From: a virus
IMG/VR virus record: IMGVR_UViG_3300031965_000065
Length of the DNA stretch: 42,962 bases
Direction: 5' to 3' (one strand)
Within the stretch, counting starts at the first letter, position 1, and every line of letters starts with the position of its first letter. The notes beneath the pieces were generated by a model, which saw only the letters and a list, made by a program, of their open reading frames with translations, was not told where the DNA came from and made no database searches. Below, in pieces: positions 1 to 42,962 of the stretch. Both the position numbers and the translations under genes were made by a program.

Positions 1-127
1 TTGACAGGAATATATAAAACAAACTAAACTGAACTAATGGAAAATACATGGAACACAATAATTGTTGCCGCAACTTCTTATGTACTAGGAGTAGCAACAG
101 GATATTACGGTTGCAGTCTTGTTAAGG
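1..127. repeat. 127-bp terminal direct repeat (second copy 42836..42962): circular or terminally redundant genome, probably an assembly overlap
   Basis: Bases 1-127 (ttgacaggaatatataaaac...cagtcttgttaagg) are identical to the last 127 bases of the window. Confidence 0.95.
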
Positions 128-1584: not shown

Positions 1585-2706
1585 ATGACTACTAGAATGA
1601 TTTCAGCCATGAAATTTTCTAAAGACAGGATGAACAACTTCATGTCCGTTGACGAAATGAATCAACTTCTTGATATTTTCAAAGACGCAGGTGCAACCCA
1701 TGTCGAAGTAGCTTCTGTTATTGGACATCCCAAGTTTGTTGAATATTCAAAACAATGGGCTGATGCAATTCACAACAAAGGAATGAAAGTGACTTGGCGA
1801 TCCGCGCACGCAAACATGGAAGGGCTTTATGGAATGGAAAAGTTTGTCGGTGGAAACAGAAAACCGGCACAGTTTTGGATTGATGAAGCGGTAAAAGCAG
1901 CAACCGATCTAGGAAGCATTGTAAAGTCCGGCGACGAGTGGGCAATTTACCCCGAAAGAACCGAAGGAGTATTTTCAGACGGTTCTGCTTGGATTTATGA
2001 AGGACTACCGTCAAGTTACGGTAAGTTCTTTGTCGATATGCACGAAGCCTGTGAGGCAGTTTTGCCAACAGGAGTAAAGATTGGTTTATCAGCAAATAAC
2101 GCTTCTGAATTATTGAGTGGTTGGATGCCAGCAAGTTTGATTAACCAAAGTGGTTTGGCGGTTGTCGACCATTACAAAGACGGCGATCCAAACGGTTATG
2201 AAGCGGACATTCGAGCTATTAAAAGCAGATACAACAAGCCAGTATATGTTCAGGAAGGTGCACCGCACAGATTTACTAAACCGACAAGAGCACAAGCAGA
2301 TGCCTACTTTGCAGTTAATAAAAAGTTAGCTGATGAAGGAGTGCTTGAAGGATTTGGAAGTTGGTCAGGTTGGTCAGGAACACCTGAAAGCATAGTTGAT
2401 AAGGTTAATGGTGTTTATAAGTTGAATGAAAGCGGAGAATCTTTGAAGGCATGGTGGGGTAACGAACCCACACCTGATCCAGAACCAGAGCCGACACCCG
2501 AACCCGAACCAGAACCTGAGCCAGAACCTGAGCCAACACCTGAACCCACACCCGAACCAGAACCAACGGTTGAAAGAATCGTCTATGCAGAAGGTGTGAA
2601 CGTAATAGTCGCGGTTAGCAATAAGGGCAATCTTTGGAGATATAGTGGAAAGCCTAAGAAATGGAAAAAAATGCCACTACCGGACTTTGAGGGGGGTGAG
2701 GAGTAA
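1585..2706 (+). CDS. glycoside-hydrolase-like (TIM-barrel type) protein with Pro-Glu/Pro-Thr linker and small C-terminal domain
   Basis: 373 aa. Alternating beta/alpha-like pattern with candidate catalytic Glu residues (IYPERTEG, YVQEGAP). Strong SD AAGGGGGGTGA lies 10 nt upstream. Sits in the lysis cluster. Function is inferred only. Confidence 0.5.
   Translation: MTTRMISAMKFSKDRMNNFMSVDEMNQLLDIFKDAGATHVEVASVIGHPKFVEYSKQWADAIHNKGMKVTWRSAHANMEGLYGMEKFVGGNRKPAQFWIDEAVKAATDLGSIVKSGDEWAIYPERTEGVFSDGSAWIYEGLPSSYGKFFVDMHEACEAVLPTGVKIGLSANNASELLSGWMPASLINQSGLAVVDHYKDGDPNGYEADIRAIKSRYNKPVYVQEGAPHRFTKPTRAQADAYFAVNKKLADEGVLEGFGSWSGWSGTPESIVDKVNGVYKLNESGESLKAWWGNEPTPDPEPEPTPEPEPEPEPEPEPTPEPTPEPEPTVERIVYAEGVNVIVAVSNKGNLWRYSGKPKKWKKMPLPDFEGGEE
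2464..2568 (+). repeat. low-complexity (PE/PT)n linker-coding repeat
   Basis: Encodes EPTPDPEPEPTPEPEPEPEPEPEPTPEPTPEPEPT from reiterated gaacc(a/c/t) units. Confidence 0.9.
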
Positions 2707-3833: not shown

Positions 3834-4034
3834 CTACCTTGACTGATTAAACTTCCTATCAAACACCGCCCTTGCTTCTTTAACAGAAACACCAACACTT
3901 AACCGACTGTGTTTTAGCGATTCTTCCCATGCCTCATCAATTTTGTCCTGATACAACCTCATAAGATCGTTAATGAAGGGTTGTCGGGTCGGCATTGAAT
4001 ATTTAATTAGCAATTGTGATATTTTGTTTCTCAT
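3834..4034 (-). CDS. hypothetical protein (last gene of leftward operon)
   Basis: 66-aa ORF with a 4-nt overlap to the upstream RRM gene. Confidence 0.5.
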   Translation of the reverse strand: MRNKISQLLIKYSMPTRQPFINDLMRLYQDKIDEAWEESLKHSRLSVGVSVKEARAVFDRKFNQSR

Positions 4035-4318
4035 TGGTCTAATCGTGGGCGCGGTCTTTCCGGACGCGCTTTTTTAACAACAATGTTTCTTTTGTTAAAA
4101 TCAATTCCGTCAAACTTTTTAATTGCGGTTTCAACTTCTTCTTCAGTTTCAAACTCAACAAAACCAAAACCTCGTGACCTGCCTGTGTCCCTGTCTAGTA
4201 TGACAGCAGCGGAAACAACGTTACCGACTTCACTGAAAAATCCTTTCAAAGCCTCGTCGTTAATCGACCACTCAAGATTACCAACGTAAATTTTATTTTG
4301 GTTATTCATCATGTTCAC
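4031..4318 (-). CDS. RRM-type (RNP-1/RNP-2) RNA-binding protein
   Basis: RNP-2 IYVGNL and RNP-1 RGFGFVEF at canonical spacing. Basic tail ARPERPRPR. About 90 aa, like bacterial single-RRM proteins. Confidence 0.85.
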   Translation of the reverse strand: MNMMNNQNKIYVGNLEWSINDEALKGFFSEVGNVVSAAVILDRDTGRSRGFGFVEFETEEEVETAIKKFDGIDFNKRNIVVKKARPERPRPRLDQ

Positions 4319-4334
4319 AATGTTTCACCTCTTT

Positions 4335-4970
4335 TCATTTTTTACTATATCCAAAGTTGATAAAATCTTCAGAATAAAGCTCACCGACAATTTTCCGTGT
4401 TTCTGGTGTATAGAACCTGTTATATCCAGTAAACGGTGCAGATTTATTGCTTTTGTTCCGGTGGGGCAATTCAAATTTATAGTTAATCATTTCACAAACC
4501 CTTAACCAGTCCTCTTTCAAGTTTTCAAACCGACCAAGAAAATCAACTTCCAATTTGCCATTCCAAAAAAGATATTCACTCATTGTCCAAAGTTGTTGGC
4601 GTTTTGCTTGACCCTTGTTTGTGCTTAAGCGTCCCCCTTTTTCAATGATCTTGCGGTATTTAATCAAATCGTTTTTAACAAACTCATCAAAATTTTCCGG
4701 ATTTGCCCAACCCAAATTCAAAATACAGGAAGCAACCCTATCGTAGGGATCGCGAACAAATGAAAACCTGAAGGGAAGACTTTTGTGAAAATCTGTTGTG
4801 GGTGGACGATCGGGCGTTGCGTTTTTAAGAATAAAAGGCGCTACGCTCATTGAAGCACCGCCGGTTTTGGGAATATGAATAAATAAAGCACGCTTAGCAA
4901 AATCACTGAAGTCCGATATTGTAGAAACTTTTGATTCTTCTGATTCACCTATATAACTGTCCTTTGCCAT
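4335..4970 (-). CDS. sulfotransferase (Sulfotransfer_2-like), paralog B
   Basis: PAPS 5'-PSB loop FIHIPKTGGASM. 3'-PB motif FVRDPYDRVAS. C-terminal VDFLGRFENLKEDWLRVC...LPH...YTPETRKIVGELYSEDFINFGY. Confidence 0.8.
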   Translation of the reverse strand: MAKDSYIGESEESKVSTISDFSDFAKRALFIHIPKTGGASMSVAPFILKNATPDRPPTTDFHKSLPFRFSFVRDPYDRVASCILNLGWANPENFDEFVKNDLIKYRKIIEKGGRLSTNKGQAKRQQLWTMSEYLFWNGKLEVDFLGRFENLKEDWLRVCEMINYKFELPHRNKSNKSAPFTGYNRFYTPETRKIVGELYSEDFINFGYSKK

Positions 4971-4973
4971 AAT

Positions 4974-5594
4974 TTATCTTTGATAACCAAACAACTCAAA
5001 ATCTCTTGCATAAAACTCACTAACAATTTTCTTTGTTTCCGGTATGTAAAAATCCATATAGTCTGTACCATACATTCTACCCCTAACTTGGTGGGGTAAG
5101 TCAAACTTAACCCCAACATGATCGCAAACCTTTCGCCAGTCTTCCTGTAAATTTTCATACCTGCCCACAAAATCCAACGCCGGCGTTTGACCAATACAAA
5201 CAAAATCTGTCATGGGTCTAAGCGGAACAAAATCTCTCAACCGGTCTTTGTGGTTATAAACAAATTCCGTAAACCTATCTTTGATTGGCTTAATTGAAAC
5301 TCGATCCAAGTTCTCATCACCTAATTGCCGCAACAATTCAAACGGCAGGGCTTCGCGAATCGTGTGTCCCAACATTCCTGAAACAAATCGTTCATACGGA
5401 TTTCTTACAAAGGCAAACTTCCAAAGATCGTCCAAAGATAAATCCTGAATTGAAATTAAATACTTTGCAAAATATTCCATTTCCGCGTGTTTATGTCCAT
5501 GACTTTGCAAAAACGGCGCTTGTTCCATTGAACTACCGGCGGTCTTCGGGATATGTATAAAAAGTATTTTATGTTTTGTGTTTATTAAACTCAT
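4974..5594 (-). CDS. sulfotransferase (Sulfotransfer_2-like), paralog A
   Basis: FIHIPKTAGSSM, FVRNPYERFVS, LDFVGRYENLQEDWRKVC...LPH...YIPETKKIVSEFYARDFELFGY. Only 3 nt separate it from paralog B. Confidence 0.8.
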   Translation of the reverse strand: MSLINTKHKILFIHIPKTAGSSMEQAPFLQSHGHKHAEMEYFAKYLISIQDLSLDDLWKFAFVRNPYERFVSGMLGHTIREALPFELLRQLGDENLDRVSIKPIKDRFTEFVYNHKDRLRDFVPLRPMTDFVCIGQTPALDFVGRYENLQEDWRKVCDHVGVKFDLPHQVRGRMYGTDYMDFYIPETKKIVSEFYARDFELFGYQR

Positions 5595-5806
5595 TTTGTT
5601 AGCGCTTCTGCAAACGCTTTAAGTGCTGCGTGAACGGCTTTGCCTATTTGTTTTTGATTGAAATTTCCCTTACCCTCAAACTGAGTAACGTCCCCGAAGG
5701 CGTGTTCTTTCTCCATGTCAGTAAAACTGACCACAACATAATCAGATTTGTAAGCAGACCTGATTAAAAACTGTCGTAGTGTTTCTTCGTGTTTTTTAAC
5801 TTTCAT
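5591..5806 (-). CDS. hypothetical protein
   Basis: 71-aa ORF with 4-nt overlaps to both neighbours. Confidence 0.55.
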
Positions 5807-6120
5807 AAATATTTTGTATTAGTAAACTTGCTTGTATCACCGCCGGCGTCTATATATTCCTGAACTCTTTTGTGAACCTTATTATGTTCTTCAACTGTCA
5901 TTAGTTCCAAGTTTTCAATATCGTTGTTCCCACGATCGCCGTCAATATGGTGAATGATCTCGTCCGATTTCAAATGTCTTCCCAAGTGTTCTTCCATTAC
6001 CAGCCGGTGTTTCAAAACGTATTGATGTTTGGGTTTGAAATGCGCCACCGCAGGGTGATCTGGCGCTTTCACCTTCACATATCCGGTTGATTTGTCTGTA
6101 TATTCACCTTTTACCTTCAT
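5803..6120 (-). CDS. HNH endonuclease
   Basis: [12 protein letters not shown]...[29 protein letters not shown] (H-N-H with the HH.DG..NN..NL pattern). Confidence 0.85.
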
Positions 6121-6818: not shown

Positions 6819-7550
6819 TTAGCCCTGGGAGGAATTAGACGCTCCTTTCGGTTTGTTGGCTTGATAAAATGCAGCTGCAAATCCTGCCGGTGTAATACTT
6901 CTTCGTGCTTGTTTATCCAACTTACCAAACTGCTCTGGGTGAATATCTTTTGAACGCATATAATCAAATTTAGGTAGTGTCTGTGAATTGGTCTTGTGTT
7001 TTTCAATCTGTTCTTTGGTTAAGACATCATCCATATTTGTGATAGTTTTTATCGGCTCATTGAAGTATCCCCATAATGCTGTTCGTTTCTTGTAAGCATC
7101 ACCAAATTCCCAAGGGTCAAAAACAAATTTTGGATTACCTAAAAACCACTTCAATCTTCCATACCAAGGATTTTCTAATGCCCAAAACTTTAACGGTGAA
7201 TACTTTTGTTGGTCTGACTTTGTAGCGTATTGACACATATAAACTACAGCCAAACAACCCAACACTGTTTTCATACCCTCTCTTAAATCTCTCGGTGTTT
7301 TGGCGTTTGTCCTGGCATCTGAAAACATAGTGCAGGGCGGAGCTGCAAGTATCCCGTAAACTTCATCTATATTTACATCCATGTGGGTTTTTCTATTAGG
7401 GTTGTAAAAAACCAATTCGTTATTAAGTCTGCCGGTTAAAGTGACATCCCATTGTGGTAGGGTAATTACCCTCACATCAAAGCCGGCATCTTTCCAGGGC
7501 TTACTCCAAGCTCCTGTTCCACCGCATAAGTCTAAGATTATATTTTGCAT
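6819..7550 (-). CDS. short DNA (cytosine-5)-methyltransferase-like protein
   Basis: Motif I ILDLCGGTGAWS, motif IV AAPPCTMFS, motif VI WALENP, KKRTALWG, and C-terminal RRSITPAGFAAAF. Only 243 aa, so it has a very small or absent target-recognition domain. Confidence 0.7.
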   Translation of the reverse strand: MQNIILDLCGGTGAWSKPWKDAGFDVRVITLPQWDVTLTGRLNNELVFYNPNRKTHMDVNIDEVYGILAAPPCTMFSDARTNAKTPRDLREGMKTVLGCLAVVYMCQYATKSDQQKYSPLKFWALENPWYGRLKWFLGNPKFVFDPWEFGDAYKKRTALWGYFNEPIKTITNMDDVLTKEQIEKHKTNSQTLPKFDYMRSKDIHPEQFGKLDKQARRSITPAGFAAAFYQANKPKGASNSSQG

Positions 7551-7552
7551 AG

Positions 7553-8101
7553 TTAAAATAATTTCTCCTGTGTAAAATCACCAATCTTTTGTTCCTTGTT
7601 GCCATAAACATTGAATTGAAATACATCTTTGCCTTGTTGTTCCATAATGTAGCGTTTGACTGCGTCTTGTGAGACATGACCTGCCGAACCAATGTAGTAA
7701 CCTCTTGCCCAAAGAAACGGAAGCTCTTTGTAGTGAAATTTGTATCCCAAATAAAGTAAATATGAAAATGCTTGTCTTGCTCTCCTTGAAGTGTTGCCTT
7801 TTAATTTTCTAACAATCTCGTAAGGTGTGTGGGTTGGCAATGCTGAAACAAAGAGGTGAATATGGTCAGGCATTACCTCAAGTGCCAACATCTCTAGTCC
7901 TTGCTCAATACATTGCTCTTCAATAATCTGCTTCAAGAACGGAACTAACTTGCCAATTAAAATCTTCTTCCTGTATTTTGGTATCCAAATAATGTGGTAA
8001 TTCAGGTTGTGTTTGGAATGGCTACTGCTTTTGACACCAGAAATCTTGACCTGTATATCGTAGGTCTTTGGGTTGAAATGTGGGTATTCGTTTTTTGCCA
8101 T
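7553..8101 (-). CDS. tnpA: IS200/IS605-family Y1 (HUH) transposase TnpA
   Basis: YHIIWIPKYRKKIL, HUH motif MPDHIHLFV, WARGYYIGSAG and the Tyr helix VKRYIMEQ. Confidence 0.88.
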   Translation of the reverse strand: MAKNEYPHFNPKTYDIQVKISGVKSSSHSKHNLNYHIIWIPKYRKKILIGKLVPFLKQIIEEQCIEQGLEMLALEVMPDHIHLFVSALPTHTPYEIVRKLKGNTSRRARQAFSYLLYLGYKFHYKELPFLWARGYYIGSAGHVSQDAVKRYIMEQQGKDVFQFNVYGNKEQKIGDFTQEKLF

Positions 8102-42835: not shown

Positions 42836-42962
42836 TTGACAGGAATATATAAAACAAACTAAACTGAACTAATGGAAAATACATGGAACACAATAATTGT
42901 TGCCGCAACTTCTTATGTACTAGGAGTAGCAACAGGATATTACGGTTGCAGTCTTGTTAAGG
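42836..42962. repeat. second copy of the 127-bp terminal repeat
   Basis: Identical to 1..127. Contains the 5' part of the gene at 37..315 (ATG at 42872). Confidence 0.95.

Follow-up and report, generated by a model that had tools for sequence, protein, structure and literature searches.

A tandem pair of genes encoding predicted sulfotransferases, here named stB and stA, was identified in IMG/VR virus record IMGVR_UViG_3300031965_000065, a tailed-phage sequence of 42,962 nucleotides that is referred to below as the window. The upstream gene, stB (206 aa; 4974-5594, minus strand), is followed after a spacer of 3 nt (TAA att ATG) by its paralog stA (211 aa; 4335-4970, minus strand), whose product has a 26-aa N-terminal extension and a pI of 9.2. 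stB is treated here as a predicted canonical O-sulfotransferase dependent on 3'-phosphoadenosine 5'-phosphosulfate (PAPS), and by their sequences the two copies are non-equivalent, as the near-invariant histidine of the family is present in stB only. Taken as a whole, the evidence is tentatively read, with a chance that we place a little below even, as pointing to a PAPS-dependent, cytoplasmic accessory pair that works on host PAPS and whose acceptor is most probably a glycan of the host envelope or the precursor of one.

The two proteins are 34% identical over 202 aligned columns (BLASTP, E = 3e-32), far above chance, which bears out the first-pass annotation of the window in its description of two same-strand open reading frames (ORFs) 3 nt apart as paralogs. 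The PAPS-binding signatures quoted in that annotation are also all present in both proteins, namely FIHIPKTGGASM and FIHIPKTAGSSM in the 5'-phosphosulfate-binding (5'-PSB) region, FVRDPYDRVAS (stA) and FVRNPYERFVS (stB) in the 3'-phosphate-binding (3'-PB) region, a further shared motif pair (DFLGRFENLKEDWLRVC and DFVGRYENLQEDWRKVC), LPH and a C-terminal FGY. Against the Pfam Sulfotransfer_2 profile (PF03567; gathering cut-off 22 bits), stB scored 67.9 bits (1.9e-18) over the full protein length (model positions 4-252) and stA 38.2 bits (2.2e-9) over residues 66-209 only (model positions 81-252), both above the cut-off. Both proteins also matched PHROG 3347 (stB at 1.1e-21, model positions 5-216 of 219; stA at 3.7e-19, model positions 74-216), a family placed in the moron/auxiliary metabolic gene category whose label, 'Galactose-3-O-sulfotransferase', is an annotation and not a measured specificity. 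An NCBIfam search of the sulfotransferase genes returned no matches, and a search of PDB sequences with stB by phmmer was uninformative. Neither protein has a transmembrane or signal segment and both are therefore expected to be cytoplasmic; they should be soluble proteins of ~24 kDa.

AlphaFold2 models of both proteins were confident (pLDDT 92.3 for stB and 89.3 for stA). When these were compared with the PDB using Foldseek, the top-ranked matches were almost all sulfotransferases (3rnl, SULT2A1, SULT1C2, Teg12, NDST1, HS6ST and TPST2), with SULT2A1, SULT1C2 and Teg12 the top matches of stA. In BFVD, the stB model strongly matched annotated sulfotransferase-family proteins, with E from 2e-9 to 1e-6 and TM 0.52-0.67 over the top 13 Foldseek matches. 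Profile searches and structure prediction had been proposed in the first-pass annotation as checks on its assignment of the pair to the sulfotransferases. With both proteins passing Pfam Sulfotransfer_2 and PHROG 3347, both folds confident and sulfotransferases as the best structural matches, the profile, motif and predicted-fold evidence is concordant with that assignment, and the PAPS-binding residues are kept.

Conservation of these residues was assessed in a family alignment of 131 relatives. The 5'-PSB loop (PKTxGxS/T) reads HIPKTAGSS in stB, with Lys17, and HIPKTGGAS in stA, with Lys35 and also Ser40; its lysine column holds lysine in 122 relatives, arginine in seven and a gap in two. 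The 3'-PB residues are Arg64 and Ser72 in stB and Arg73 and Ser81 in stA, with the arginine kept in 131/131 relatives and the serine in 129/131. Between the two PAPS motifs, His36 of stB is conserved in 120 of the 131. A marginal alignment of the family profile to HS2ST and HS6ST in the PDB (E ~7e-3) places His36 on the histidine of 'YHGHVSY' in HS2ST and of 'CGLHADW' in HS6ST, which we take to be the catalytic bases of those enzymes (presumably His142 and His158, respectively). By homology to HS2ST and HS6ST, Lys17 of stB together with Arg64 and Ser72 would hold the 5'-phosphosulfate and 3'-phosphate of PAPS, while His36 would deprotonate the acceptor hydroxyl for an in-line transfer of the sulfuryl group.

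In contrast, stA and all 15 members of its clade alignment (A4) have no conserved histidine between the two PAPS motifs. At the corresponding position the clade carries a segment of its own, APFILK...PPT[TS][ED]F, whose acidic residue is conserved in 13/15 members, together with an invariant LPHxN. We suggest that stA would most likely sulfate a second position or a second acceptor with another base, candidates for which are the acidic residue of PPT[TS][ED]F and His170 of LPH, and that it is possibly a weaker enzyme. Alternatively, stB could be the sole enzyme, with stA a non-catalytic regulatory, scaffold or specificity subunit that binds PAPS or 3'-phosphoadenosine 5'-phosphate (PAP), whatever the acceptor. 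We consider this unlikely, although a subunit role would fit the lower Pfam score and partial model coverage of stA, the absence of the histidine from an entire clade that yet retains the nucleotide-binding lysine, arginine and serine, and a stB-like to stA-like gene order that is fixed in four phage lineages, the frames of the window and of the related locus L005 being nearly contiguous or overlapping. It is weakened by a solo stA-like gene in another locus (L010), by the clade keeping invariant residues of its own, including His170 and Asn172, and by a second, bacterial subgroup without the histidine, which makes another base possible. This second subgroup was monophyletic in 199/200 bootstraps and never grouped with the stA clade; the histidine has therefore been lost at least twice in the family, and members without it may still be enzymes that use another base. 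The subgroup carries the signature KTGGASIRRGFF...G.IP..W and comprises P0140, P0142, P0147, P0152, P0153, P0155, P0159, P0162, P0166, P0173 and P0186. The stA and stB clades were recovered as sisters in 121/200 bootstraps of one alignment versus 41/200 of the other, so that support for their origin by a single duplication depends on the alignment.

A sulfate donor would have to come from the cell. A tblastn search for APS-kinase (adenosine 5'-phosphosulfate kinase) homologs found none in the window, and no sulfur-activation family occurred among the scanned window ORFs, a set that includes all ORFs of at least 300 aa and excludes some small ORFs of the structural module. These results agree with the first-pass annotation that the genome has no PAPS-synthesis gene, and as the phage makes no PAPS, stB and stA probably use the PAPS pool of the host. 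Consumption of PAPS by the pair has good circumstantial support from a related locus, since in L005 a 245-aa fusion of CTP_transf_like (5.8e-8) and APS_kinase (2.3e-20) domains, the former an HxGH nucleotidyltransferase domain, is encoded directly upstream of the pair. Similarly, the sulfotransferase of Ralstonia phage phiRSL1 is encoded in a cluster that also contains an APS-kinase gene. The fusion gene (ENA ERZ24794647 NODE_24773, 3781-4518) has a small, NMNAT-like nucleotidyltransferase domain, and the same domain stands alone as a 120-aa protein (phmmer 5e-18) in L003 (10554-10916), right after the sulfotransferase of an unrelated viral glycan cluster. The HxGH domain may be a minimal sulfate-adenylylating enzyme, in which case its fusion to the kinase would form a compact PAPS synthase.

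Evidence on the acceptor comes largely from the wider family. Scans of IMG/VR, JGI metagenomes and GTDB genomes recovered only relatives of ≤35% identity and gave no host or prophage assignment, while all closer relatives came from short contigs of ENA, Logan and JGI. Among 88 sulfotransferase-bearing loci, 29 carry two to six copies of the family. When 150 proteins encoded within two genes of the distant-relative sulfotransferases at metagenome loci were scanned against Pfam, the commonest families were Sulfotransfer_1, Sulfotransfer_3, GT25, GT1, GT2, GT61, UDP-galactopyranose mutase and epimerases, with Polysacc_synt (Wzx-type flippases) and Wzy_C also common. In two viral loci (L003 and L004) the sulfotransferase lies inside a cluster of sugar-modifying genes, and a marine bacterial relative (P0013) adjoins GT9 and GT4 genes and another sulfotransferase. 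By association, the family would thus work on glycans and multi-copy arrays would be normal for it. For the window, the acceptor is proposed to be a sugar hydroxyl of lipopolysaccharide (LPS), capsule or exopolysaccharide, or of a cytoplasmic precursor of these. Infected cells might then display a sulfated surface, which we infer could exclude superinfecting phages or keep progeny from being lost by adsorption to debris and to cells already infected.

Several points weigh against this proposal. Scans of the window turned up no family of glycosyltransferases, of sugar-nucleotide enzymes or of export proteins, and the pair instead lies among DNA-metabolism genes (HNH endonuclease, endonuclease VII, methyltransferase, helicase and exonuclease) with an RNA-binding neighbour. 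The glycan context is drawn from relatives of ~30% identity, and acceptor specificity is not conserved at such a distance. Best matches in species-representative genomes were ≤34% identical, and no host was assigned from them. Matches of both models to PDB structures were weak (E ~1e-2, TM ≤0.47), which leaves no solved enzyme on which to model the acceptor site. Finally, stA may not be catalytic, as it has no equivalent of the conserved histidine.

The island that holds the pair is placed at the end of a leftward string of DNA-metabolism genes, which from its gene content is inferred to be transcribed early. Its downstream boundary is a gene for a 95-aa RRM_1 RNA-binding protein (4031-4318, minus strand; Pfam RRM_1 1.6e-22), directly downstream of stA, and its upstream boundary is an HNH_3 endonuclease gene (5803-6120, minus strand; Pfam HNH_3 8.9e-16). 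The first-pass annotation had placed the pair between HNH and RRM genes; adjacency to the RRM gene was confirmed, but a 71-aa ORF (5591-5806, minus strand), which overlaps stB by 4 nt, separates stB from the HNH gene. This ORF has no Pfam, PHROG or PADLOC match and is not conserved, with relatives carrying unrelated small ORFs at the equivalent position. The leftward string ends in a 66-aa ORF (3834-4034, minus strand) without a significant family match, which converges on the end of the rightward late genes.

The order of a stB-like gene followed by a stA-like gene recurs in three other phage lineages, making four with the window. The survey of related phage genomes that the first-pass annotation had proposed thus yielded the ordered pair three more times, in addition to the APS-kinase fusion linked to it in L005. 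In L008 (75% identity for the stB-like and 60% for the stA-like protein) an HNH gene and a small ORF lie ahead of the pair. In L180/L181 (35% and 54%, respectively) the order is HNH, small ORF, first sulfotransferase, two small ORFs, second sulfotransferase, a 372-aa secreted cysteine-rich protein and RRM. In L005, L006 and L007 (48% and 39%) the pair lies just upstream of the small terminase gene, and in L005 it is followed by a gene for a small protein with a HAD-type DxDGV motif. Single copies also occur: the stA-like gene of L010 adjoins RRM and is the sole copy over the 10 kb to either side, and L094 has a solo stB-like gene. The first-pass annotation had suggested that the two copies serve two acceptors or two sequential sulfations, and this appears plausible and consistent with retention of the pair in four lineages and with how often multi-copy arrays occur across the family at large.

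Downstream of the stA-like gene, and at most three genes away from it, an RRM gene is found in the window, L009, L010 and L180. However, in L182, a related phage whose head genes are similarly arranged and whose RRM protein shares 65% identity with that of the window, nothing between the HNH and RRM genes matched Sulfotransfer_2. As L182 keeps both boundary genes without a sulfotransferase, the pair is regarded as optional cargo of a variable HNH-RRM island. A role for the RRM protein as functional partner of the pair was considered and is weakened by the same locus, and its position beside the pair is best regarded as shared synteny and does not prove a functional link. The RRM_1 protein matched no PHROG family at E ≤0.001; its homologs form a tight family of ~90 aa (63-99% identity) on contigs of up to 43 kb, those inspected being phage-like, and in L010 and L182 the gene is just upstream of the terminase genes. 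The island also varies in other content. In L009 (Logan SRR23851194, 594-1837) two genes that are absent from the window stand between the stA-like sulfotransferase and RRM, the first encoding a 255-aa protein with a protein-kinase-like DFKPAN...IDMF signature (identified by eye) and the second a protein of 159 aa that has an HxHxH motif and matches the HIT domain weakly (E 0.011). Upstream of RRM, L180 (8821-9939, with sulfotransferases) and L182 (7614-8372, without) both encode a secreted or membrane-anchored cysteine-rich protein with a PTPTPTPEP linker, whose C-terminal domain is 69% identical between the two.

Small molecules offer another class of acceptor. The pair could inactivate a host metabolite, signal or defence messenger by sulfating it, or it could act through the cofactor itself, using up PAPS and producing PAP so as to redirect the sulfur metabolism of the host or to inhibit host nucleases sensitive to PAP. 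Such a role would suit proteins that are minimal in size (~200 aa) and lack the large insertions by which the glycosaminoglycan enzymes bind their acceptors (relative to the family profile, HS2ST and HS6ST hold insertions of ~40 residues between the PAPS motifs), and genes that lie in a string devoted mostly to DNA metabolism. It would also accord with the kinase-like and weakly matching HIT-domain proteins between sulfotransferase and RRM in L009, and with the HAD-type protein that follows the pair in L005, a possible PAP phosphatase. Nevertheless, the cellular context of the family is overwhelmingly one of glycan biosynthesis, two diverged enzymes would be needless for draining PAPS alone, and a PADLOC scan of stB, stA and three adjacent small ORFs returned no defence-model match and no link to a defence system, nor does a known anti-defence family adjoin the pair in the window. 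We therefore hold a small-molecule or cofactor role to be quite unlikely.

A further possibility is that the acceptor is a modified base or sugar on phage DNA (or RNA), with sulfation as the last step of a hypermodification that evades host nucleases. The main lead comes from phiRSL1 (L096, NC_010811; 4968-7982), in which the sulfotransferase gene ORF232 is directly upstream of ORF231, annotated as hypothetical, whose product is a 5-hydroxymethyldeoxyuridine (5-hmdU) DNA kinase (PF18723, helical domain, 2.5e-39). The adjoining ORF230 is thymidylate-synthase-like (3.9e-22), and on the other side of ORF232 are three glycosyltransferases, two nucleotidyltransferases and the APS kinase, so that the whole looks like a thymidine-hypermodification cluster. 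In its own right, the phiRSL1 cluster hints at an undescribed, possibly sulfated, thymidine hypermodification. A nucleic-acid acceptor would further fit the basic character of stA (pI 9.2), the location of sulfotransferase genes among replication genes (window, L001 and Stenotrophomonas phage DLP_6) and the proximity of RRM to the stA-like gene (window, L009, L010 and L180). The lead does not, however, transfer to the window, as tblastn with phiRSL1 ORF230, ORF231, ORF233 (glycosyltransferase) and ORF235 (nucleotidyltransferase) found no homologs there or in the loci of the phage clade, and Pfam and PHROG scans of the window found no hydroxymethylase-like or 5-hmdU-kinase family. In addition, L182 keeps RRM without a sulfotransferase, and two key papers on thymidine hypermodification pathways make no mention of sulfotransferases or of phiRSL1. 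To our knowledge, no sulfated nucleic-acid base has been described. A nucleic-acid acceptor is therefore judged improbable. A related reading, in which the pair forms a two-component sulfation system for a non-glycan acceptor (phage DNA, RNA or a nucleotide-derived molecule) and stA contributes specificity or non-canonical chemistry, takes the phiRSL1 cluster and the repeated RRM synteny as its leads and has, in our view, a slimmer chance still. If true, nucleic-acid sulfation would be the first sulfated nucleic-acid modification.

With regard to the genome as a whole, an exact direct repeat of 127 bp at both ends of the window (1-127 and 42836-42962), either an overlap from circular assembly or a true terminal repeat, indicates a complete genome of ~42.8 kb. 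Gene products recognised in it include a large terminase, portal, major head protein, tail fibres and endolysin, as well as a primase/helicase, exonuclease, helicase, endonuclease VII, HNH endonuclease and DNA methyltransferase, and there are no tRNA genes. Its terminase is ≤47% identical to any GenBank phage terminase, and megablast of the sulfotransferase region against GenBank phages gave no matches. Within the DNA-metabolism string, an IS200-type Y1 transposase gene (7553-8101, minus strand; Pfam Y1_Tnp 3.5e-33) has helicase and methyltransferase genes as neighbours and no TnpB-like gene adjoining it. The neighbouring methyltransferase (6819-7550, minus strand; 243 aa) has the C5-methyltransferase motifs DLCGGTG, PPC and ENP and matches PHROG 757 'DNA methyltransferase' (2.7e-33), with a faint Pfam DNA_methylase match (E 0.033); it is short for the C5 type and may be missing its target-recognition domain. 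Adjoining the endolysin gene is a gene for a 373-aa protein (1585-2706, plus strand) that contains a long (PE)n/(PT)n linker and has no convincing match in Pfam or PHROG. By eye only, the first 290 residues resemble a glycoside-hydrolase barrel, and the protein may be a polysaccharide depolymerase.

The locus offers a compact experimental system of two small soluble enzymes, one canonical and one without the conserved histidine, along with natural variants among its relatives that have a linked PAPS-synthesis gene, a single copy or none. The identity of the acceptor would distinguish between sulfation of the host surface, diversion of activated sulfate and a novel nucleic-acid chemistry.

Among the closest known systems are other viral sulfotransferases. 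The first-pass annotation had described sulfotransferases as outside the usual phage toolkit, a view that should be revised, since annotated members from phages and giant viruses match the stB model, including proteins of phiRSL1, Prochlorococcus phage P-SSM7, Synechococcus phages S-T4 and ACG-2014f, roseophage SIO1 (gp5.1) and pitho- and mimiviruses. Sulfotransferase genes are found repeatedly among cyanophages, roseophages, jumbo phages and giant viruses, none with an assigned acceptor. The literature lists viral sulfotransferases as auxiliary genes of unclear function, and their role in phages has been described as unclear (PMC10580990). The pair is a further example of these already annotated but uncharacterised proteins, and finding it is a matter of correct annotation rather than a surprise. 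It shares the fold and PAPS motifs of the viral members of PHROG 3347, such as phiRSL1 ORF232 and DLP_6 gp051, but its sequences are ≤35% identical to them; tblastn against GenBank phages matched three records, from phiRSL1 and DLP_6 only. Unlike the other viral PHROG 3347 proteins, those of the window form a conserved, ordered pair from two diverged clades, one of them without the histidine, and unlike phiRSL1 the pair has no linked glycosyltransferase, APS-kinase or 5-hmdU-kinase genes. What is new here is the recurring ordered pair, the APS-kinase fusion beside it in L005, the difference in the histidine, the optional island and the glycan-synthesis setting of the distant cellular relatives.

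Temperate phages encode O-antigen acetyl- and glucosyltransferases that bring about serotype conversion and superinfection exclusion and are expressed in lysogens. The proposed likeness of the pair to these enzymes is an analogy of purpose only, as the chemistry and protein family differ and the window yielded no integrase gene. The structurally characterised members of Sulfotransfer_2, HS2ST (PDB 3f5f/4ndz) and HS6ST (PDB 5t03), were both among the Foldseek matches and share with the phage proteins the lysine of the 5'-PSB loop, the arginine and serine of the 3'-PB motif and the alignment of stB His36. However, the phage proteins are only ~200 aa long, have neither the long insertions nor the membrane or lumenal context of these enzymes and match them with TM ≤0.47, and stA is without the histidine. 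The pair also resembles the small bacterial Sulfotransfer_2 proteins of polysaccharide and LPS clusters, which are of equal length, 27-40% identical and carry the same motifs, and whose genes often occur in tandem arrays of two to six copies. The neighbours of these bacterial genes encode glycosyltransferases, epimerases, flippases and sulfotransferases of other families, whereas the phage pair has no such partners and would therefore act on substrates made by the host.

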